A stretch of DNA of 64,000 nt from an uncultured Spirochaetales bacterium. Lineage in GTDB: Bacteria > Myxococcota_A > UBA9160 > UBA6930. Position numbers and translations under genes: made by a program. Under the pieces are notes generated by a model, which was not told where the DNA came from, searched no databases, and worked only from the letters and a program-made list of their open reading frames with translations. Below, one piece after another: positions 3,655-46,180 of this stretch (position 1 is the first letter of the stretch; every line of letters starts with the position of its first letter). The stretch spans positions 87,160-151,159 of the forward strand of contig CAZTOU010000002.1 of assembly GCA_964615365.1 (NCBI GenBank), in the 5' to 3' direction.

Positions 3655-4983
3655 CTAGCCCTTGCGGGTCGCAGCCCGCCTCTTTTCCGCCCGGCGTGCG
3701 ATCTCCCGGGCCAGGGCCAGCGCCTCATCCCGGTCGCGCACCGCGCGGTCCAGGAAAGCGATGCGGATACGCGCCAGGGCTCGGCCCACCGCCGGTCCGC
3801 GAATTCCGATCTCCAGCAGATCGTCTCCGCTGATGGGAAGCGCCGCGACGCGATCCTCGCGCGCGTAGCGCTCGATTCGCCGGCGCAGATTGGGCGGTGC
3901 CCAGGCGAGCAGCGCCAGCAGCTCCTCGTCATCGGCCCCGCTGAGGGCGGCGTCGGTGGTTCCCCGCCCACGAGCGCCCCCGATCTTCCGGATCCACTGG
4001 TCTCGCGCCTTCGGAAACGCGCCGATCTTCTTGGCGACCTCGCCCCGGACCGCGAGCCGATGCAGGGCCCTCCGGCGCAACGAGGCATCCAGCGGCGCCA
4101 TCCACACCATCAGCCCGGTGACCCAGGGTCGCCGGAGCTTCGTCGCCCAGGGCGGATCCGCGATGGCTCGTCCCAGCCGGCGCAGCGGCGCCACCGACGC
4201 CGGGGGGAGCTCGAGACCCGGTTCGAGAGCGGGGAGCACGTGCCAGTCGGCCAGCAGGCGAAGCGCGCGCGAGGGATCGAGTTGGTGAACGGGGTCTTCG
4301 AAGACCCGCCCGATCTCCGCGCGAAGTCGCTCTCCGCTGACGGCCCCGAAAGCGCCGTCCCGGAGCGCGGAGCGCAGCGCCGAGCGGGATCCCCGCGACA
4401 TCGTGAAGCCGAGCCGAGGGGCCAGGCGAGCGGCGCGCAGCGCGCGGGTCGGGTCGTCGTGAAAGCTCCGCCTGTGGAAGACGCGGAGCACCCGATCCGT
4501 GAGATCGCGCAGGCCCTCGCCCGGATCCACGATCGCGGGGCGGCCCCGCCGAGCCACCGGGGTCAGCGGGATCGCCAGCCCGTTCACCGTGAAGTCCCGT
4601 CGAGCGAGATCGTCCTCGAGGCGGCCGCCGCGAACCGTCGGAAGGGCTCCGGGACGCTGGTAGCTCTCGGCCCGCACCGTGGCCAGGTCGACCACGGCGC
4701 CCTCGGCCTCCAGGCGGACGGTCCCGAAGCGGGCGTGGGTGACCACGCGCACACCGTCGTGCGCGATCGCGTCGGCGAGCTCCTTCGCGCCGCACCCCCG
4801 ATCAGGCTCGACGATCAGGTCCACGTCGCGGAGCGGCCGACCGAGGAGGAGATCGCGGACCGGGCCGCCCACCAGCAGGACGCCGAGCTCGGCGCGCTCC
4901 CCCTCCTGGAGGAGAGCGCGCACCAGCGCGCCCGCTCCCTCCGGGATGGCGAGCAGGACCTGCTGGGCAGTGAGGCGCTTCAC
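3655..4983 (-). CDS. tRNA nucleotidyltransferase, class II (CCA- or A-adding)
   Basis: LVGGPVRDLLLG..LRDVDL, DLARRDFTVNGLA, SFHDDPTRALRAAR, SGERLRAE. Confidence 0.85.
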   Translation of the reverse strand: MKRLTAQQVLLAIPEGAGALVRALLQEGERAELGVLLVGGPVRDLLLGRPLRDVDLIVEPDRGCGAKELADAIAHDGVRVVTHARFGTVRLEAEGAVVDLATVRAESYQRPGALPTVRGGRLEDDLARRDFTVNGLAIPLTPVARRGRPAIVDPGEGLRDLTDRVLRVFHRRSFHDDPTRALRAARLAPRLGFTMSRGSRSALRSALRDGAFGAVSGERLRAEIGRVFEDPVHQLDPSRALRLLADWHVLPALEPGLELPPASVAPLRRLGRAIADPPWATKLRRPWVTGLMVWMAPLDASLRRRALHRLAVRGEVAKKIGAFPKARDQWIRKIGGARGRGTTDAALSGADDEELLALLAWAPPNLRRRIERYAREDRVAALPISGDDLLEIGIRGPAVGRALARIRIAFLDRAVRDRDEALALAREIARRAEKRRAATRKG

Positions 4984-8628: not shown

Positions 8629-9809
8629 CGTCCCAGCTCCGCGACGGTCATGCCGCTCTCCCGGCGGTAGGTGGAGAGCGCGCGGGAGATCTGCTCGGCG
8701 AGGACATCGATGTAGAAGTCGCCCCGGAGACGCCTGGCCTCGGTGCGGTTGGTCAGGAATCCCGCTTCCAGCAGGATCGAGGGCATGTTGGAGAGGAAGA
8801 GGACGAAGAACGGCCCTCGCTTCACGCCCAGGTCTTCGACCGACCCGTGGGTCCTGCGAACCCCGTCGATGACCTCGTCCTGAATGGTTCGCGCGAGTCG
8901 CGCCGAGTGGACCGACACCTCGGAGACGCGGAGCTGCCCGACAATGCGCTGCAGCGCGTCGAGGCGGTCCGCCGGGACCCCGTTCTCCCGGGCCGCGACG
9001 CGCTGCGAGTGCCGTTCGTGGCTCTTGTCGAGATAGTAGGTCTCGATTCCCCGGGCACCGCGGCGTTTCGAGGCGTTGGTGTGGAGAGAGATGAAGACGT
9101 CGCCACCGACTCCCTCGGCGAAGGCGGTCCGTTCCTCGAGCGAGAGCGTCTCGTCCCCGTCCCGGGTCAGCACCACGCGAAAACCGCGGGTCACCAGCCG
9201 GGGACGAAGTGCCCGGGCCAGTCGCAGGGTCACGTTCTTCTCCTGCAGTCCGAACGCGCCGAGCGCCCCCGGATCGCGGCCGCCGTGGCCGGGATCGAGG
9301 ACCACGGTGCGGACCGGGCGCAGACCAGGCGGAAGCTGCCCCTCCGCGGAAGGGGCTCTCCGCGTTCTCCGACCCGGCGACACCGAGGCGCGAGCCCGGG
9401 CGCCGTAGACGTCGACGACGACCCGGTTCGGCTCCGACAGGAAGAAGAGGCGGTGATGGTCGTAGCGCTTGAGATCGATCACCACGCGGGTGGTGGTGAG
9501 GTTGTTCTGCCCCAGCCGGATTCCATCGAGGAGACCGTCCCCCACCGGAATCGGATCCGCATAGCGCAGGCCGACCCATACACCCGACAGGTCCAGGTAC
9601 AGGCGATCCGGCTTCTGCTGGGTGGGATCGGCGCCCAGCCGCTTGATCTCGGTCGTCACCGGTCGCGTGACCTCGACGACCACACGGGTGTACTCGGGAT
9701 AGGACCAGTGACGAACCGCCGTCACGTCGGAGAGGCCGGGGGGCCGCTCGATTCCGAGCAGCACGGGCAGCGCCAGCAGGATCGGGAGGATTCCGGCGAC
9801 CGGCCGCAT
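8625..9809 (-). CDS. N-acetylmuramoyl-L-alanine amidase (AMIN + Amidase_3)
   Basis: Signal peptide; AVRHWSYPEYTRVVVE (AMIN); VVLDPGHGGRDPGA, EK, FISLHTNAS, SILLEAGFLTN. Confidence 0.9.
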   Translation of the reverse strand: MRPVAGILPILLALPVLLGIERPPGLSDVTAVRHWSYPEYTRVVVEVTRPVTTEIKRLGADPTQQKPDRLYLDLSGVWVGLRYADPIPVGDGLLDGIRLGQNNLTTTRVVIDLKRYDHHRLFFLSEPNRVVVDVYGARARASVSPGRRTRRAPSAEGQLPPGLRPVRTVVLDPGHGGRDPGALGAFGLQEKNVTLRLARALRPRLVTRGFRVVLTRDGDETLSLEERTAFAEGVGGDVFISLHTNASKRRGARGIETYYLDKSHERHSQRVAARENGVPADRLDALQRIVGQLRVSEVSVHSARLARTIQDEVIDGVRRTHGSVEDLGVKRGPFFVLFLSNMPSILLEAGFLTNRTEARRLRGDFYIDVLAEQISRALSTYRRESGMTVAELGR

Positions 9810-13931: not shown

Positions 13932-14258
13932 TCAGCCGACCGGGCCGGAGGCGGCCACCTTGTCGGTCGTCGTCGAGCGGGCCTCATCCACCTTCTCCTT
14001 CAGCTCCTTGCCGACCTTGAAGAAGGGCGTCCGCTTGGCCGGGATCTGCACTTCTTCCCCGGTCTTCGGGTTTCGGCCCTCGCGGGCCTCCCGAATCTTC
14101 ACCTGGAAGCTCCCGAAGCCGCGAATCTCGATCCGACCGCCCTGCTTCAATGCTTCGGTCATCGAGTCGAAGATCGTGTTGACCACGACCTCGGTGTCCT
14201 TCTTCGAAATGTGCGGAGTCAGCTCCGCGACCCTCTCGATGAGCCCGCTCTTTGTCAT
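13932..14258 (-). CDS. ihfB: Integration host factor subunit beta
   Basis: MTKSGLIE, RIEIRGFGSFQVKIREAREGRNPKTGE.V.IPAKRTPFFKVGKELKE; downstream of rpsA; GGGGAG RBS. Confidence 0.92.
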   Translation of the reverse strand: MTKSGLIERVAELTPHISKKDTEVVVNTIFDSMTEALKQGGRIEIRGFGSFQVKIREAREGRNPKTGEEVQIPAKRTPFFKVGKELKEKVDEARSTTTDKVAASGPVG

Positions 14259-38894: not shown

Positions 38895-39593
38895 TTGGTC
38901 TCGCGATGGATGACCGGAATCCGCAGGTTCCTCGGCCGCTACCTCGTAGCCGGCGTGCTGACCTTCGCGCCCATCGGAATCACGGTCTGGGCGATTGCCT
39001 GGATCATCCAGAGGCTCGACAGCCTCTTCCTGCCCCGGGTGCTTCGGCTTTTCTATCCCCACCTCGAGGAGCCACCCAACGTTCCCTTCCTCGGCGCGAT
39101 CTTCACCCTCCTCGTGATCCTGCTCTTCGGCGTCGTCGCCCGCCACCTCTTCGGCCGGGAGATCGTTCGGCTCTGGGAGCGACTGCTCTCCCGGGTGCCG
39201 GTCGCGCGAAACATCTACGCCGCGGTGAAGCAGCTCCTGGACGCGATCTTCGTCGCTGGCTCGCCGAGCAACTTCCGTCGCGTGGTTCTGGTGGAGTACC
39301 CGCGAAGAGGGGTCTACGCGCTGGCCTTCACCACCGGTCCCTCCCGCGGACCCTTCGAACAGCTCGGGGTAGACGACCTCGTCAACGTGTTCGTCCCCAC
39401 CACACCGAACCCGACCTCGGGCTTCTACCTGCTGGTGCCGGAGAGTGATCTGACACCCCTGGAGCTATCCGTGGAGCAGGCCTTCAAGCTGGTGATGTCG
39501 GCGGGCCTGGTGGCGCCGGGGGATTCGCCGCCCGGCGAGGCGCCCGAGAACGCACCCGCGGGAGTGCCCCCCCCCGCTCCCGAGACCCGCTAG
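38895..39593 (+). CDS. DUF502-family membrane protein
   Basis: AGVLTFAPIGITVW, P.ARNIYAAVKQL, VVLVEYPR.G, VFVPTTPNPTSGF, EQAFKLVMSAG. Confidence 0.88.
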   Translation: MVSRWMTGIRRFLGRYLVAGVLTFAPIGITVWAIAWIIQRLDSLFLPRVLRLFYPHLEEPPNVPFLGAIFTLLVILLFGVVARHLFGREIVRLWERLLSRVPVARNIYAAVKQLLDAIFVAGSPSNFRRVVLVEYPRRGVYALAFTTGPSRGPFEQLGVDDLVNVFVPTTPNPTSGFYLLVPESDLTPLELSVEQAFKLVMSAGLVAPGDSPPGEAPENAPAGVPPPAPETR

Positions 39594-39883
39594 CCGGCTT
39601 CGTCCTGCCCCTTCGACAGGGACGCGGCGCGGCGTTCGCGAATCGCCTTGGCGGTGAACCAGATCGCGAGCACCGAGAAGATCGCGGCGCCGACCCGATT
39701 GAACTTGATCCACTCCATCTCCGGGTTCAGCCATCCGTCGTAGATGAACCAGAGCGAGAAGCCGATCAAGAGCACGGGCAGGAAGAAGGGATTGTCGAAC
39801 GGAGTCGGGGCGTGCTCCTCGTCGGAGTCGGCGTCGCCCTGGCTCGCGGCGTCCAGATCGCTGGGCTCTTCGCGTTCGGTCAC
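39590..39883 (-). CDS. Small hypothetical membrane protein (97 aa), probably leaderless
   Basis: Acidic N-terminus and two hydrophobic segments; TG-c-TAAGGT lies 6 nt before the GTG. Confidence 0.7.
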   Translation of the reverse strand: MTEREEPSDLDAASQGDADSDEEHAPTPFDNPFFLPVLLIGFSLWFIYDGWLNPEMEWIKFNRVGAAIFSVLAIWFTAKAIRERRAASLSKGQDEAG

Positions 39884-39973
39884 GGCGCGACCTTAGCAGT
39901 TGTCTCCTCGAGGCCGCACAAGCCGCCGTGGGAGGCGACCCGCCAGGGGGAGCGCGAAGGATCGGGAGACCCC

Positions 39974-40028
39974 GGTGCAGCAGGACGACTGCACCTGAAG
40001 CCTCCTCACTGCAGGGCGGTCGCTGCAG
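39974..40028. promoter_or_regulatory. Two palindromic sites, putative enhancer (UAS) for a sigma54 activator
   Basis: GGTGCAG-N8-CTGCACC (39974-39995) and CTGCAG-N8-CTGCAG (40009-40028); centres 34 bp apart, about -108 and -74 from the predicted +1. Confidence 0.65.
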
Positions 40029-40066
40029 CGCGGTCCTAACCCCTTGAATTTCCGACGATCCACCCA

Positions 40067-40081
40067 TGGCACGCGGCTTGC
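40067..40081 (+). promoter_or_regulatory. Sigma54 (-24/-12) promoter
   Basis: TGGCACG-CGGC-TTGC matches the TGGCACG-N4-TTGC consensus with exact GG-to-GC spacing. Confidence 0.85.
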
Positions 40082-40170
40082 GATGGCCCCTCCGCATGAG
40101 GATCATGGGAATCGGTCGCACATCGGCTCATCATCTCGATAGGGCCTGCGCGGCGAGGGAAGAAGATCCG

Positions 40171-41316
40171 ATGTCGCCTTCCTGGGATGATTCCGAAAGG
40201 GAACGCGGTCGCCGCGGTCGTGGCAGGCCGCGTCTTCGTGAGCTCGAGCTGGAGCAGCCCGATGCGGCAGATTCCGGCCTCCACCGGGCTCCGGCCTCTC
40301 CCCCGGCTTCCCGGCCGCGGCGCAAGGGCCGGCGCAGCCTCACACCGGAGGAGCGCGCCTACCGGGAGGCCCGCAGGGCGGCGAACCGGAAGATCGGCTT
40401 CCTGAGTCACCTGGTTCCCTACGCCGCCGTCTGCCTCTTCCTGCTCTTCGTCACGGGGTTCGGGGTGGCGACGATCGTCGCTCTCAGCTGGGGCATCGCG
40501 GTCGCCCTCCACTACTTCTTCGCCATCCTCGCACCTCGGCTGCGGCAGGAGATCATCCAGCACGAGGTGCGGCAGCAGGTTCAGAGCGACGTCTCGGAGC
40601 AGAAGAGAACCCTCGAGGGCCGGCACGCGCAGCACGTCGAGGAGCTCTCCGCCTCCATCGCCCACGAGATCCGCAACCCGATCACGGCAGCCAAGAGCCT
40701 GGTTCAGCAGATGGGTGAGGATCCCGCGTCCCCCGACAACGTCGAGTACGCCAACGTCGCGCTGGAGGAGCTCCAGCGGGTGGAGAAGAGCATCTCCCAC
40801 CTGCTTCGCTTCGCTCGCGAGGAAGACGTGGAGATCACCGACGTCTGCCTGGCGGACGTCGTGGACTCCGCGCTGGAGACCTTCCGCGATCGGATCGCGG
40901 AGGCCGGGGTGCGGATCGAGCAGGAGCTGTCCGCGGTCACCGCAATGCGCGGCGACCCGGACAAGCTGCGGCGGGTGATCATCAACCTGGTGGGCAACGC
41001 GCTCGACGCCTTCGAGGGTCAGGACGTCCCCTCCCCTGCGCTGCAGATCCGCTCCGGAGAGAACCTGGCCGGCACCGAGATCTGGATTCGCGTGAAGGAC
41101 AACGGGCCGGGCATCACGCCGGAGAAGCTCGACAAGATCTTCAGCCCCTTCTACACCTCCAAGTCCTCGGGTACCGGCCTGGGGCTCGCCATCTCCAAGA
41201 AGCTCGTCGATGCTCACGGCGGCTCGATCGAAGCCCAGTCCTCCCCCGGCTCCGGGACCGAGTTCTTCCTGACCTTCCCAGCGCACAGCAGCGAGGCGGC
41301 GGAGCGCGAGACGTGA
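40171..41316 (+). CDS. Sensor histidine kinase 1 with N-terminal 2TM-type domain
   Basis: KIGFLSHLVPYAAVCLFL..WGIAVALH (2TM-like); SASIAHEIRNP (H box); NLVGNALDA (N); DNGPGI (G1); FSPFYTSK (F); GTGLGL (G2). Confidence 0.9.
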   Translation: MSPSWDDSERERGRRGRGRPRLRELELEQPDAADSGLHRAPASPPASRPRRKGRRSLTPEERAYREARRAANRKIGFLSHLVPYAAVCLFLLFVTGFGVATIVALSWGIAVALHYFFAILAPRLRQEIIQHEVRQQVQSDVSEQKRTLEGRHAQHVEELSASIAHEIRNPITAAKSLVQQMGEDPASPDNVEYANVALEELQRVEKSISHLLRFAREEDVEITDVCLADVVDSALETFRDRIAEAGVRIEQELSAVTAMRGDPDKLRRVIINLVGNALDAFEGQDVPSPALQIRSGENLAGTEIWIRVKDNGPGITPEKLDKIFSPFYTSKSSGTGLGLAISKKLVDAHGGSIEAQSSPGSGTEFFLTFPAHSSEAAERET

Positions 41317-42419
41317 GTCTCCCGCGATCCGACGGAGGCGCGGCGATGGGGAGGGGCGACCGGGAGAGTGAGCGGATGCGCGAGAAGGGTCGGCATCGCC
41401 ACCACCGAAGCCGCCGGCGGCGACGCAGGCTGCCGCCCGAGCCCGAGGCGGATCTGACTCCGGAGGAGCAGGTCTACCGGGAGGCGAGGAGGCACGTGGC
41501 CGCCAAGGCGAGGCTGGTCCGCGATCTCATCCGGTACGCGGTCGTGGTGGGAGTGCTGGCCCTCGTGGCGAGCCGCGCCGCCTGGATCGTCGGAATCTGC
41601 TGGGGCGTCTTCCTCGCCGGGAACGTCTTCCGGACCTATGTCGAGCCCGCGCTGCGCCAGCGTTGGATCGACCGGGAGGTGGATCGCCGACTCGACCGCA
41701 CCGTCTCCGCCAGCCGGCGCGAGATCGAAGGCGAGCACACCCGCCGCATCGAGGAGATCTCGGCCTCCCTCGCCCACGAGATCCGCAATCCGATCACCGC
41801 GGCCAAGAGTCTGGTTCAGCAGATGGGCGAGGACCCGCGTTCGCCGGAGAACGTCCAGTACGCCGACGTCGCGCTCACGGAACTGGACCGGGTCGAGAAG
41901 AGCATCTCCCACCTGCTTCGCTTCGCCCGCGAGGAAGATGTCCGGATTTCCGAGATGCGCATGGCCGACGTGATCCCCTCGGCGGTGGAGTCCTTCCGGG
42001 ACCGTCTCGACCGGACCGGCGTCGAGGTGGCGATGGCGATCGACGCGAACGGCGCGATGCGCGGGGACCCGGAGAAGCTGCGGCGGGTGCTCATCAACCT
42101 GCTCTCGAACGCGCTCGACGCGCTGCTGGAGAGCCAGATCGACGAGCCCCGAATCGAGATCCAGAGCGGAGAGAACCTGGCGGGCACCGAGGTATGGCTG
42201 CGGGTTCGGGACAACGGCCCCGGGATCGATCCGGAGCGCCTCCAAGCCATCTTCAGCCCCTTCTTCACCTCCAAGGAGAGCGGCGCCGGCCTCGGGCTCG
42301 CGATCTCGAAGAAGGTCGTCGACGCCCACGGCGGGTCCATCGAGGTCGACTCGACCCCCGACCGAGGCACGGAGTTTCTGCTGACGTTTCCGAAACAGCA
42401 AGACCGCGGGAAGGCATGA
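41313..42419 (+). CDS. Sensor histidine kinase 2, paralog with divergent 2TM-type domain
   Basis: SASLAHEIRNPITAAKSLVQQMGEDP nearly identical to HK1; NLLSNALDA, DNGPGI, GAGLGL; GTGA overlap with the HK1 stop. Confidence 0.9.
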   Translation: MSLPRSDGGAAMGRGDRESERMREKGRHRHHRSRRRRRRLPPEPEADLTPEEQVYREARRHVAAKARLVRDLIRYAVVVGVLALVASRAAWIVGICWGVFLAGNVFRTYVEPALRQRWIDREVDRRLDRTVSASRREIEGEHTRRIEEISASLAHEIRNPITAAKSLVQQMGEDPRSPENVQYADVALTELDRVEKSISHLLRFAREEDVRISEMRMADVIPSAVESFRDRLDRTGVEVAMAIDANGAMRGDPEKLRRVLINLLSNALDALLESQIDEPRIEIQSGENLAGTEVWLRVRDNGPGIDPERLQAIFSPFFTSKESGAGLGLAISKKVVDAHGGSIEVDSTPDRGTEFLLTFPKQQDRGKA

Positions 42420-42422
42420 TCC

Positions 42423-43820
42423 ATGACGGCACGAATCCTCATCGTCGAAGACGAGCGGGCCATCCGGCTCGCGCTCTCCGGCCTTCTGCGCAGGGAGGGA
42501 CACGAGACCGATCAGGCCCAGAGCGGGGAGGAGGCAATTCGGGCCCTGGACAGGCAGTCCTTCGACTTCGTGCTGACGGACCTGGCATTGGGCAGCGGAG
42601 CGAGCGGAATGGACGTGCTGCGGAGCGCCAAGGAGCTCCAGCCCGAGACCCCGGTGGTGATGATCACCGCCCACGGCAACGAGAAGATCGCGGTCGAGGC
42701 GATGAAGCTCGGGGCCGACGACTACGTCCCCAAGCCCTTCGACAACGACGAGATCCGCCTCGTGGTGAAGCGCGCCCTGGAGCGCACCCGACTCGCCCGG
42801 GAGAACCGGATGCTCCGCGCCCGGGTCGAGAGGGATTTCGGTTTCGACAACCTGATCGGCTCCGGGACCGCCATGCAGCGCGTCTTCGAGACGATCCAGA
42901 AGGTCGCGGAGACGGACCTGACGGTGCTGATTCGCGGGGCGAGCGGGACGGGCAAGGAGCTGGTCGCCCAGGCGCTCCACCAGCACAGCTCCCGCAAGAG
43001 CCAGCCCTTCGTGGCGGTGAACTGCGCCGCCATCAGCCGGGAGCTGGTGGAGAGTGAGCTCTTCGGACACGAGAAAGGGGCTTTCACGGGCGCGGACGCG
43101 CGCCGCGCCGGGCGCTTCGAGGCTGCGGACGGTGGCACCGTCTTCCTCGACGAGATCGGCGACATGGCGCCGGAGACCCAGGCCAAGGTACTGCGGGTCT
43201 TGCAGGAGCACTCTCTCGAGCGGGTCGGTGGCACCCAGCCCATCGAGGTGGATGTGCGCGTCGTCGCAGCGACCCATCGGGACCTGGAGGCGGAGGTCGA
43301 GGAGGGCCGTTTCCGCGAGGACCTCTACTACCGCCTCAAGGTGGTGGAGATCGAGCTGCCGCCGCTTCGAGAGCGCACCGAAGACCTGCCCGCCCTCGTC
43401 CAGCGCTTCCTCGACCAGGTGGCGGAACGACTCGGACGCGACAAGAAGCGCCTCACCGACCAGGCTCTGGCCCGCCTGATTCGTCACTCCTGGCCGGGAA
43501 ACGTTCGCGAGCTTCGCAACGTGATCGAGCAGGCCGCCGTGCTCGCTCCCGGCGAATCCATCGAAGAGGCGGACCTCCATCTCTCCGGAAAAGCCGACGG
43601 CGCCGCGGCTCCCGGGACCGATCTCGCCGACGTGCCCTTCAGCGACGCCAAGAAGCGAGTGATCGAGGAATTCGAGCGCAGCTTCCTGCTGCGCGCGCTG
43701 CGAGACAACGACGGAAACATCTCCCGGACCGCGGAGGCGATCGGAATGGTTCGCCAGAGCCTGCAGCAGAAGATCCGGGAGCTCGAGCTGCGCGACGAGG
43801 ACTGGAGAAAGCCCGTCTAG
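42423..43820 (+). CDS. Sigma54-dependent response regulator (NtrC family: REC-AAA+-HTH)
   Basis: ILIVEDE/LTDL/KPF receiver; GASGTGKE; ESELFGHEKGAFTGA; LDEIG; FREDLYYRL; WPGNVREL; Fis-type HTH. Confidence 0.95.
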   Translation: MTARILIVEDERAIRLALSGLLRREGHETDQAQSGEEAIRALDRQSFDFVLTDLALGSGASGMDVLRSAKELQPETPVVMITAHGNEKIAVEAMKLGADDYVPKPFDNDEIRLVVKRALERTRLARENRMLRARVERDFGFDNLIGSGTAMQRVFETIQKVAETDLTVLIRGASGTGKELVAQALHQHSSRKSQPFVAVNCAAISRELVESELFGHEKGAFTGADARRAGRFEAADGGTVFLDEIGDMAPETQAKVLRVLQEHSLERVGGTQPIEVDVRVVAATHRDLEAEVEEGRFREDLYYRLKVVEIELPPLRERTEDLPALVQRFLDQVAERLGRDKKRLTDQALARLIRHSWPGNVRELRNVIEQAAVLAPGESIEEADLHLSGKADGAAAPGTDLADVPFSDAKKRVIEEFERSFLLRALRDNDGNISRTAEAIGMVRQSLQQKIRELELRDEDWRKPV

Positions 43821-43857
43821 GCGGCGCGCACCCCAGGAACCACGGAGGACCCTGACC

Positions 43858-44595
43858 ATGTCACGACGACCCGGATTGATCGCGCGATTCACCGGACTGT
43901 TTCGCGGCTGGGCGGCCGGCTGGCTGCGAGATCGCGAGGAGGAGAGCCCGCGCGCCGTCTACGAGCACGCCATCGCCGAGCGCATCAAGCAGTACCGCGA
44001 GCTCAAGGAGGCGGTCGCCGGCATCCTCTACATGAGAAACAAGCTGGAGGGCGAGCTCGAGCAGCGGCGCAACGAGCTGGCCCGAACCCACGGGGACATT
44101 CGCCGGGCCGTCAAGCGCGGCGACGACCAGGTCGGCCTCGCCCTGATCTCCCACAAGCAGCTCCTGGTGGGTGACATCGAGCGGGCGGAGAGGGAGTACG
44201 AGAGCCTGCGAGCCGAGGCCGAGGAGGCCAAGACCAACCTGATCCACTTCCGCGAGGAGATCCGGGTCCTGGAAAGGGAGAAGGGGCGAATCGTGGTGAC
44301 CCTCGCCAACGCGAAGGCGCGCCGTCGCATGACCGAGGCGCTCGACGGACTCTCGGTGGACGCGGACATGCGCGCCCTCGAGAACGTGCGCGAGCACGTC
44401 GCCCGCCTCGCCACCGAGGGCGACCTCGACAAGGAGCTCGGCACCGACCAGGGGCTCGCGGCCCGTGTCCGCGAGATCCGGGAGGAAGCGAATACCGACG
44501 CCGCCAAGAAGGAGCTGGAAGAGATCAAGCGTCAGCTCAACCCGGCGGAAATCCCGGCCCGCTCCAGCGAGGTCGCCTCCGCGACGTCGATCTGA
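43858..44595 (+). CDS. PspA/IM30 (Vipp1, ESCRT-III superfamily) protein
   Basis: Amphipathic N-terminus GLIARFTGLFRG; P..VYEHAI.E; long coiled coils; TLANAKARRRM; C-terminal ELEEIKRQL; GGAGG RBS. Confidence 0.85.
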   Translation: MSRRPGLIARFTGLFRGWAAGWLRDREEESPRAVYEHAIAERIKQYRELKEAVAGILYMRNKLEGELEQRRNELARTHGDIRRAVKRGDDQVGLALISHKQLLVGDIERAEREYESLRAEAEEAKTNLIHFREEIRVLEREKGRIVVTLANAKARRRMTEALDGLSVDADMRALENVREHVARLATEGDLDKELGTDQGLAARVREIREEANTDAAKKELEEIKRQLNPAEIPARSSEVASATSI

Positions 44596-44661
44596 GTCGC
44601 GCGGCTTCGGGGCGCAGCGGTCGCCCCCCGAGCCGCTCTTCCCCGGTGAGGGAGCACGAAG

Positions 44662-45135
44662 ATGGAACCGACGATCACGATGCGAAACCCACGGACCGTT
44701 CCGCGGGCCGACGAGCGGGAGTTCCAGAGCCTGTTGCGGCACTACGAGGTCCGCGAACGGGTGGAGGGTCGCGTCCGGACCCTCGGCCGGCTCTACCTGG
44801 CGATCTCGGCGCTGGGGATCCTCTCCGCCTGCATCGCCTTCCTGGCGATCGCACCCTGGGGCCTGCTCTCCGGGGATCCTACCGCCACCGCGCTGCTCGC
44901 CGGCCTGGGAGGCGCGATCGCCGCGGTGCTGCTGGTGATCTCGGCCCCGGGGCTGATCGGCGGCCTCGCCCTCCTGACGGGGCGCTCCTGGGCCAGGCTC
45001 TACGCGATGGTCCTCTCCGGCGTGCTCCTCCTCTGGTTTCCGCTCGGAACGATTCTGGGAACCTACTCCCTCTACGTCCTGCTGCAGCCGGACACCCGCT
45101 TCTACTTCGAGCGCCGGCGGGCGCAAGCTCGCTGA
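44662..45135 (+). CDS. Hypothetical multi-pass membrane protein
   Basis: 157 aa with about four hydrophobic segments; W(A)R..LLLWFPLGTILGTYSLYVLL motif. Confidence 0.75.
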   Translation: MEPTITMRNPRTVPRADEREFQSLLRHYEVRERVEGRVRTLGRLYLAISALGILSACIAFLAIAPWGLLSGDPTATALLAGLGGAIAAVLLVISAPGLIGGLALLTGRSWARLYAMVLSGVLLLWFPLGTILGTYSLYVLLQPDTRFYFERRRAQAR

Positions 45136-45157
45136 CGGGGATGCAGGCTAGGAGCCG

Positions 45158-46180
45158 CTAGTAGGCCTTGCCGATCTCGTCCTGGTCGTAGCGGGGCAGC
45201 TCCACCTGCCGCCCGCCACTCAGCAGCGTGACGCCGCGCGAGGGGTCGACGGCGGTCGCGATCCTCGCGCAGGCGATCCCTTCTGCGGCGCAGGCGCCAG
45301 CGACCCGGTCGGCGTCGTCAGCCGCCACGGCCACCAGGAGCGCCCCCGACGCGATCATTCCCAGGGGATCCATCCCGAAGTGCGCGCTGAGCGGTCGGGC
45401 CTGCTCGAGCACCGGAATCGACTCCTCGTCCACCAGCAGACCGACGTCACTGGCGCGGGCGAGCTCCCAGAGGGCCGTGGCGAGGCCCCCCTCGGTCGGG
45501 TCGTGCATGGCGTGAACCGGAGCCACCGCGCAGGCGGCACGGGCATCCCGAAAGACCGAGATCCCGGGCACGTGCAGCAGATCGGCGAGTCCGGCGAGAA
45601 CCCGCGGGGCGAAGCCCGCCGCCAGCAGCTCGTCGCGCTTCTCCCGGGCGAGGATGGCGCATCCCTCGATGGGAACCTCCTTGGTGCACAGGATCGCGTC
45701 ACCGATCGCCACGTCAGAGCTCCGGATCAGCGAGTCCTTCGCCACCTCGCCCACCATCGACCCCGCAATCACGACTCTGCGGACCGCGCTCGTGACCTCG
45801 GTATGGCCGCCCACCAGAGTGACTCCGTAGCGGTTGCAGGCGACGCGGATCGCCTCGAAGAGCGAATCCACCTCTCTCGCCGTGGTCTCGGACTCGGGGA
45901 GGAGCAGGGTCGCCAGGAACCAGCGCGGCGTTCCCCCGGCGGTGGCGATGTCGTTCACGTTCACCGTCACCGCATAGTGGGCGATCTCGTCGGTGGCAAA
46001 GGTGATCGGGTCGCTCTTCAGGAGCCAGTACCGGTCCCCACCCGCGTCGACGACCGCGACGTCCCGGCCGATCCCCGGCCCCAGGACGACGCCGCTCCCC
46101 GTCTCCGGCGCTGCCAGCAGTCCGGCCAGGAGCTCCATCCCGAGCTTTCCCGCCGGCAGGGGCTTCGCTTCCTCGGCCAT
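45158..46180 (-). CDS. AIR synthase-related (PurM/HypE/ThiL superfamily) protein
   Basis: KSDPI, VNVNDIATAG, LVGGHT, AMHDPTEGGL. Confidence 0.85.
   Translation of the reverse strand: MAEEAKPLPAGKLGMELLAGLLAAPETGSGVVLGPGIGRDVAVVDAGGDRYWLLKSDPITFATDEIAHYAVTVNVNDIATAGGTPRWFLATLLLPESETTAREVDSLFEAIRVACNRYGVTLVGGHTEVTSAVRRVVIAGSMVGEVAKDSLIRSSDVAIGDAILCTKEVPIEGCAILAREKRDELLAAGFAPRVLAGLADLLHVPGISVFRDARAACAVAPVHAMHDPTEGGLATALWELARASDVGLLVDEESIPVLEQARPLSAHFGMDPLGMIASGALLVAVAADDADRVAGACAAEGIACARIATAVDPSRGVTLLSGGRQVELPRYDQDEIGKAY

Follow-up and report, generated by a model that had tools for sequence, protein, structure and literature searches.

A predicted three-site enhancer of TGCAG-N8-CTGCA palindromes, with a candidate bending site, precedes the sigma-54 promoter of a kinase-activator-PspA operon in an uncultured myxobacterium

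In enteric bacteria, NtrC (NR-I) acts at glnAp2 through paired dyads with a TGCA core, located ~100–140 bp upstream of the −24/−12 promoter. NtrC is a REC-AAA+-Fis-HTH regulator, and its gene is part of the operon it activates. In E. coli and Yersinia, membrane stress induces pspA through PspF, from a sigma-54 promoter that is preceded by activator sites, with an IHF site lying in between (PMC11237479). LiaFSR-liaIH (and BceRS-BceAB) of Bacillus subtilis represents an autoregulated two-component system that sits beside a PspA homologue and induces it (PMC11237479). Within Myxococcus xanthus, the Nla28S/Nla28 kinase-activator operon activates itself from a sigma-54 promoter via tandem upstream sites; the Nla28 half-site is the 8-bp CT(C/G)CG(C/G)AG, arranged in tandem with variable spacing, and its regulon relates to starvation and development (PMC9765219).

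The locus analyzed here belongs to an uncultured myxobacterial MAG (5.54 Mb, 67% G+C, 123 contigs). Its features are listed below by position in the window, i.e. the whole stretch of 64,000 nucleotides under study.

13989-14258, minus strand: IHF beta subunit gene (NCBIfam NF001222, 128.6 bits versus a cut-off of 115)
39590-39883, minus strand: small divergent gene for a 97-aa membrane protein, no family match
39974-39995, no strand: site A, GGTGCAG-N8-CTGCACC with 7-bp arms, the distal and best-conserved predicted activator site
39996-40013, no strand: site B, TGAAGCCTCCTCACTGCA, i.e. TGAAG-N8-CTGCA, one mismatch to the motif
40010-40027, no strand: site C, TGCAGGGCGGTCGCTGCA, an exact TGCAG-N8-CTGCA
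40037-40049, plus strand: candidate IHF-like bending site, TAACCCCTTGAAT, 1 mismatch to YAA-N4-TTGATW
40067-40081, plus strand: sigma-54 promoter, TGGCACGCGGCTTGC, a perfect TGGCAC-N5-TTGC (−24 GG, −12 GC) with exact spacing
40171-41316, plus strand: sensor histidine kinase 1 (Pfam 2TM, HisKA, and HATPase_c), first gene of the operon
41313-42419, plus strand: sensor histidine kinase 2 (Pfam), a tandem paralogue 57% identical to kinase 1
42423-43820, plus strand: NtrC-family response regulator/enhancer-binding protein (Pfam REC, AAA+ (Sigma54_activat), and Fis-type HTH (HTH_8))
43858-44595, plus strand: PspA/IM30 homologue (Pfam PF04012), 38 bp 3' of the activator gene
44662-45135, plus strand: membrane protein of no family (no Pfam match), syntenic in family-level relatives only

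We confirm that the palindromes are real and that they form part of a predicted activator-binding enhancer of three sites, which is followed by a candidate bending site and a sigma-54 promoter. The original prediction placed two TGCAG-N8-CTGCA palindromes upstream of the −24/−12 box, with centers 34 bp apart and ~108 and ~74 bp before a +1 near 40093. Both palindromes are exact and where they were expected, at 39976-39993 (TGCAGCAGGACGACTGCA, the core of site A) and at 40010-40027 (site C), and their centers lie 108.5 and 74.5 bp upstream of the predicted +1, i.e. 34 bp from one another. Allowing one mismatch reveals site B between them. Relative to the −24 box, site A starts at −91, site B at −71, and site C at −57, so that B starts 20 bp from A and 14 bp from C; all three are located within a 287-bp divergent intergenic region. 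There is a 4-bp overlap between B and C, which have a CTGCAG hexamer in common, and because of this overlap the three sites are not obviously fillable in the same way.

The exact motif is present twice in the 64-kb window (sites A and C only), compared with a mean of 0.07 in shuffled sequences, and none of 100 shuffles reaches two copies. Genome-wide, the exact dyad has 14 copies in 5.5 Mb, a number of the same order as that of dyads with other spacer lengths (0–14), and the only pair of exact dyads in the genome is the one at this locus. A lone exact copy is thus uninformative, and a single-site genome scan was rejected as a means of finding the regulon; only a model with paired sites works for this purpose.

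The box at 40067-40081 is the only perfect −24/−12 match in the window and one of 28 in the genome, and the pattern YGGCAC-N5-TTGCT is kept 5' of the orthologous kinase gene in relatives. The genome also encodes rpoN (on contig C7) and an activator with both GAFTGA and a DNA-binding domain, while dyads at conserved positions are found ~80–150 bp upstream (−91, −71, and −57 from the box). Altogether, some 24 sigma-54 activators accompany the 28 perfect TGGCAC-N5-TTGC boxes in 5.5 Mb—i.e. the use of sigma-54 in this genome is unusually heavy, which is typical of Myxococcota.

Between the palindromes and the promoter, an AT-richer patch (CTAACCCCTTGAATTT, 40036-40051) had been put forward as a place where a bending protein could act, and this suggestion fits with a candidate IHF-like element at −30, in one orientation, and with the IHF-beta gene in the window. 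The element was matched to YAA-N4-TTGATW, i.e. to the IHF consensus WATCAA-N4-TTR as read on the complementary strand. With up to 1 mismatch, it is found in only 20 of 78 orthologous promoters, nearly always at −29 to −32, and none of the 78 has a match in the opposite orientation; the AT content of these promoters peaks at −30 to −15. The genome holds two HU/IHF genes, i.e. IHF-beta in the window and a second member of the family on contig C29. Since the element is fixed in position and orientation among orthologues, it is plausible that IHF acts at this candidate site.

The predicted transcript has a leader of ~78 nt ahead of kinase 1, and one kinase 1 orthologue aligns starting at residue 1. 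The start of kinase 2 overlaps the stop of kinase 1. The activator (42423-43820) contains the GAFTGA motif, its C-terminal DNA-binding domain spans about residues 395–465, and its closest solved structures are those of Aquifex NtrC4 and NtrC1. It falls under all NCBIfam equivalog cut-offs, including those of NtrC (473.9 bits, cut-off 558.6), PspF (286.1 bits, cut-off 443.55), AtoC, and ZraR. PspA is likely the effector output of the promoter, and the membrane protein at 44662-45135 is possibly the last gene of the operon. The kinase-kinase-activator-PspA module is kept in ~68 of 80 loci, where pspA follows the activator gene, and the activator is 70–90% identical across the syntenic loci. By contrast, the divergent gene, which has a GTG start at 39883, ~90 bp from site A, is syntenic only in a few close relatives, so it is probably outside the conserved circuit.

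A promoter of its own for pspA was considered in the window and rejected, as the 38-bp gap upstream of the gene has no box; such promoters are found in some relatives only. A terminator scan of 39500-45400 yielded terminator-like sites no more numerous than in shuffles. The activator-pspA spacer has other elements in certain relatives. For example, in L039 it carries about six tandem units of 12–13 bp at ~8640-8720 (GGAACCTTTGCA / GGACCCTTTTGCA) that contain TTGCAGG. In one clade (L062, L084, L088, L089, L091, L092, and L093), a G+C-rich element is conserved in this spacer just 5' of the pspA ribosome-binding site (..CCGCGTAGGCGCG..GGGCAAsCGCGGCGC..GCGCGCCGCACGGAGGA), and could act as a structured leader RNA or as a site of processing. 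Separately, in a congener (G003:C4:237904-238906) the kinase 1 orthologue appears split, with a TGA in frame, next to an intact enhancer, promoter, and kinase 2; either pseudogenization or an error of assembly may explain this.

For phylogenetic footprinting, kinase 1 orthologues were gathered from 20 relatives and 80 species-level genomes, all of which are MAGs of uncultured Myxococcota or "delta proteobacterium"; in total, roughly 347 genomes carry the kinase. The promoter of each orthologous locus was picked without regard to the palindrome, and sites were then sought within 140 bp upstream. The footprint holds: a position-specific site with up to 1 mismatch is present in 74 of 78 loci, compared with 0.29 loci in shuffles and 0 in the coding control. 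An unbiased 6-mer count gives the same picture, with CTGCAG in 50/78 upstream regions versus 0/78 and 0/75 control regions. L078 is an apparent exception, in which an additional gene intervenes and the site and its box are found 1.1 kb further upstream.

The positions of these sites are sharply bimodal, with starts at −93 to −88 and at −73 to −66 relative to the first nucleotide of the −24 box. The first peak corresponds to site A, an equivalent of which (up to 1 mismatch, −96 to −86) is found in 55/78 loci, and the second is the position of site B. Equivalents of site C (up to 1 mismatch, −59 to −57) are restricted to ~9 of 78 loci, mostly from close relatives. These peaks and the rarity of site C indicate that the conserved core is A plus B, and that C is a lineage-specific addition. 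The enhancer first described from two palindromes is thus conserved as far as the palindromes are concerned, but its conserved pair consists of A and the site that had been missed, B, 20 bp apart. Likewise, the 34-bp spacing recurs (as 33–34 bp) in a subgroup of loci with sites at about −104 and −71, but it is not the main conserved spacing.

Across the aligned sites, the arms are 84–100% invariant while the spacer is near background. Invariant arms with a free spacer are the signature of recognition by a protein, whereas the arms of an RNA or DNA hairpin would covary. The helix-turn-helix of the activator, GN(I/V)SRTAEaIGMVRQSLQQKIREL (recognition helix MVRQSLQQKIREL), is essentially invariant in 72 orthologues and so parallels the invariant half-site. 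One locus, L072, departs from both: it is without TGCAG-N8-CTGCA, its sigma-54 box is instead preceded by a CTGTCAG...CTGACAG dyad (about 4520-4570), and its activator carries the variant recognition helix GLARQSLQQKIKEL. This single case may reflect co-variation between protein and DNA.

Other evidence also ties the motif to the activator encoded at 42423-43820, as had been proposed. Specifically, a scan of 41 related genomes, 28 with the module and 13 without it, finds the site-plus-promoter pattern in 20 of the former and in none of the latter (Fisher P = 1.6e-5), while a reversed control pattern gave 1 match over the same 41 relatives. In addition, the module itself contains a further sigma-54 box, accompanied by this motif, in three relatives (L073, L075, and L094); the box precedes a small 2TM protein and then pspA in L073 and L075, and it is directly ahead of pspA in L094. 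The nearest helix-turn-helix in the genome belongs to a paralogous activator on contig C36 (C36:32168-33088, NISRTAEGIGMARESLSRKVR; 58% identical over 43 residues), which makes this protein a candidate for cross-talk at sites A–C. Given this similarity and the ~24 activators in the genome, adjacency and co-occurrence are the basis on which the sites are assigned to the activator of this operon, and we regard the 42423-43820 protein as their presumed binder.

The genome was searched with a paired model, defined as site A with up to 1 mismatch followed 19–22 bp later by TGNNS-N8-CTGCR. It returns four loci in 5.5 Mb, all 76–91 bp upstream of sigma-54 boxes, and 0 in the reversed genome.

Locus 1, C2:127135: this operon (sites A and B)
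Locus 2, C6:158241: MacAB-like exporter operon, HlyD-ABC-FtsX-FtsX
Locus 3, C53:15754: PMT_2/ArnT-like glycosyltransferase, then an acyltransferase
Locus 4, C98:3671: Acyl_transf_3 membrane protein

Because every one of the paired loci (4 of 4) precedes a sigma-54 box, the motif does give the handle on the regulon that the original prediction expected of it, and this regulon is envelope-related. Together, the four promoters would define a small envelope-stress regulon. The C98 enhancer includes a 25-bp stretch, CTGCACCTGAAsCCTCCTCrCTGCA, that is near-identical to 39989-40013. At the MacA promoter, the motif is conserved across three genera; it is kept in three congeners, and an exact A site together with a B site is found in two genomes of another genus. 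The other two targets are less widely traced, i.e. relatives of the ArnT-like protein are only 40–48% identical, and the Acyl_transf_3 target has an orthologue in one relative only, where it is without a sigma-54 box.

The pattern is found in front of further genes in relatives, namely HlyIII genes (three congeners), Toastrack/DUF4097 genes (three genomes of another genus), genes for small membrane proteins, and a P450-like gene, the latter identified by eye only. Toastrack is a recognized partner domain of Psp and Lia systems (PMC11237479). In the genome itself, an exact TGCAG-N8-CTGCA is found at C16:37790-37807, ~450 bp upstream of a Toastrack (DUF4097)-like region; no sigma-54 box follows it.

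In our view, it is highly probable that 39974-40081 represents the upstream activator sequence and core promoter of a sigma-54 operon whose own activator would bind there, resulting in positive autoregulation and induction of PspA. From the elements, their statistics, positions and conservation, and their co-occurrence with the module, we infer which protein binds, what phosphorylation does, that IHF loops the DNA, and which way regulation runs, as follows. The 2TM kinases would sense membrane stress and phosphorylate the activator, leading to the assembly of an active AAA+ ring. Dimers of the activator would bind the TGCAG-N8-CTGCA dyads A and B (and C) via the Fis-type helix-turn-helix. A bend at the IHF-like element (~−50 from +1) would then carry the ring to the closed sigma-54 holoenzyme at TGGCAC-N5-TTGC, where ATP hydrolysis would open the promoter near 40093. 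As a result, kinases, activator, and PspA would be made together, which would provide both positive feedback and an effector output, and the other three promoters would be co-induced.

Because the activator gene is within the transcript, the circuit would be positively autoregulated; autoregulation would be only part of what the design achieves, as the operon also carries PspA. The overlap of sites B and C, the ~24 activators of this class with the C36 paralogue among them, and the match to the IHF consensus in only 20 of 78 loci count against this model, as does one further point. A strictly activator-dependent promoter needs a basal source of activator, and a scan of 39500-45400 for sigma-70 promoters found no promoter-like sites.

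The enhancer could be genuine and yet be bound by another activator, e.g. the C36 paralogue, in which case the operon would be the target of a cascade and would not be autoregulated. The genome offers many such proteins (~24 activators), the helix-turn-helix of the C36 paralogue shares NISRTAEgIGM with that of the operon's activator, and cascades of activators have been documented in Myxococcus for Nla28 (PMC9765219). We nevertheless consider this reading unlikely, given that the motif stays with the module in 74 of 78 loci, is absent from the 13 relatives without the module, and is used by the extra promoters inside the module, and that the recognition helix of the C36 protein differs (MARESLSRKVR versus MVRQSLQQKIR). 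It is more improbable still that an unrelated dimeric regulator, for instance a repressor, uses the palindromes as its operators and thereby controls the divergent gene at 39590-39883 or modulates the sigma-54 promoter. The sites do lie in a divergent intergenic region of 287 bp, with the GTG start codon of the divergent gene (39883) ~90 bp away, but that gene is syntenic in only a few close relatives, whereas the sites are found lineage-wide at a constant distance from the −24 box and recur before other sigma-54 boxes that have different neighbors.

That the palindromes have no regulatory role at all, and arose by chance or represent a hairpin, a terminator, or a restriction-modification sequence (CTGCAG is the PstI site), seems very hard to credit. 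A single exact copy is indeed no commoner than dyads of other spacer lengths, and a stem of 5–7 bp with an 8-nt loop could form; however, the conservation in 74 of 78 loci is position-specific, the arms are invariant and do not covary, and the sites are upstream of the predicted start with no T-run after them. As for restriction, avoidance of CTGCAG in the genome is unremarkable (observed/expected 0.84). The comparative data thus effectively refute this explanation, and among these possibilities an enhancer for the operon's own activator remains our preferred reading.

Beyond the locus, it is an evenly balanced question whether these promoters reflect an undescribed, lineage-wide envelope-stress regulon of uncultured Myxococcota. 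Under this proposal, an NtrC-type activator controlled by phosphorylation, together with twin 2TM kinases, would replace PspF or LiaR, and PspA would be co-induced with a MacB-type exporter, Toastrack, HlyIII, and membrane enzymes that modify lipids or glycans. In this reading, the neighboring dyads A–C could serve as the template on which three dimers form one hexamer. If true, the regulon would amount to a counterpart, built on sigma-54, of the Lia/Bce response to antimicrobial peptides.

Compared with NtrC at glnAp2, the locus presents the same general layout, i.e. paired dyads with a TGCA core and a REC-AAA+-Fis-HTH regulator encoded in its own predicted target operon. The resemblance to paired NtrC sites with a different spacer, as originally noted, therefore stands with regard to the paired dyads, but these are not NtrC sites: the half-site, the spacing, and the score of the regulator all differ. 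Specifically, the motif here is TGCAG-N8-CTGCA (18 bp) versus TGCACC-N5-GGTGCA (17 bp) for NtrC, sites are spaced by 20 and 14 bp versus ~32 bp, and the predicted targets are envelope genes rather than nitrogen genes. As such, neither the NtrC consensus nor an NtrC equivalog score is found at this locus.

The likeness to PspF and pspA lies in a sigma-54 promoter with upstream sites and a candidate IHF-like site ahead of a PspA-family gene; in L094, pspA even has a box and motif of its own. PspF, however, has no receiver domain, is restrained by PspA, and is transcribed divergently from a sigma-70 promoter, whereas the activator here has a REC domain, scores below the PspF equivalog cut-off, is accompanied by two 2TM kinases, and is encoded in an operon co-oriented with pspA. 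With LiaFSR-liaIH, the locus shares a two-component system that adjoins pspA, as well as Toastrack and FtsX/MacB-type ABC transporter targets. By contrast, LiaR belongs to the NarL type and works at a sigma-70 promoter, where it uses another inverted repeat, and the regulator here is an NtrC-type AAA+ protein; no homologue of LiaF or LiaI was seen at this locus. Without a NarL/LuxR-type LiaR, LiaF, or a sigma-70 promoter, only the logic of the Lia system is shared. Like Nla28, finally, this is a myxobacterial kinase-activator operon with predicted self-activation from a sigma-54 promoter, and its enhancer is made of TGCAG-N8-CTGCA dyads and not of tandem 8-bp half-sites.

A literature search for the TGCAG-N8-CTGCA motif returned only the unrelated motif table of Nla28 (PMC9765219), and the text of a broad Psp survey describes no REC-AAA+-HTH activator with 2TM kinases driving PspA for this lineage (PMC11237479). 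What is new is thus the 18-bp motif, the architecture of the sites, and a predicted regulon of four promoters for an uncharacterized activator subfamily whose members are found in uncultured Myxococcota (at least 78 species-level genomes). An anonymous kinase-kinase-activator-PspA cluster becomes a testable circuit, which would respond to membrane or envelope stress by producing PspA, a MacAB-like exporter, and enzymes that modify the envelope. Since the design is textbook, the value of these findings lies in annotation and in an experimental handle rather than in a new principle. As judged from its sequence, the architecture is that of a textbook sigma-54 enhancer, which would work like those of NtrC/glnAp2 and PspF/pspA while being a member of neither system, and it would represent a third route, after PspF and LiaRS, by which PspA is wired into transcription, here through a two-component system and sigma-54.
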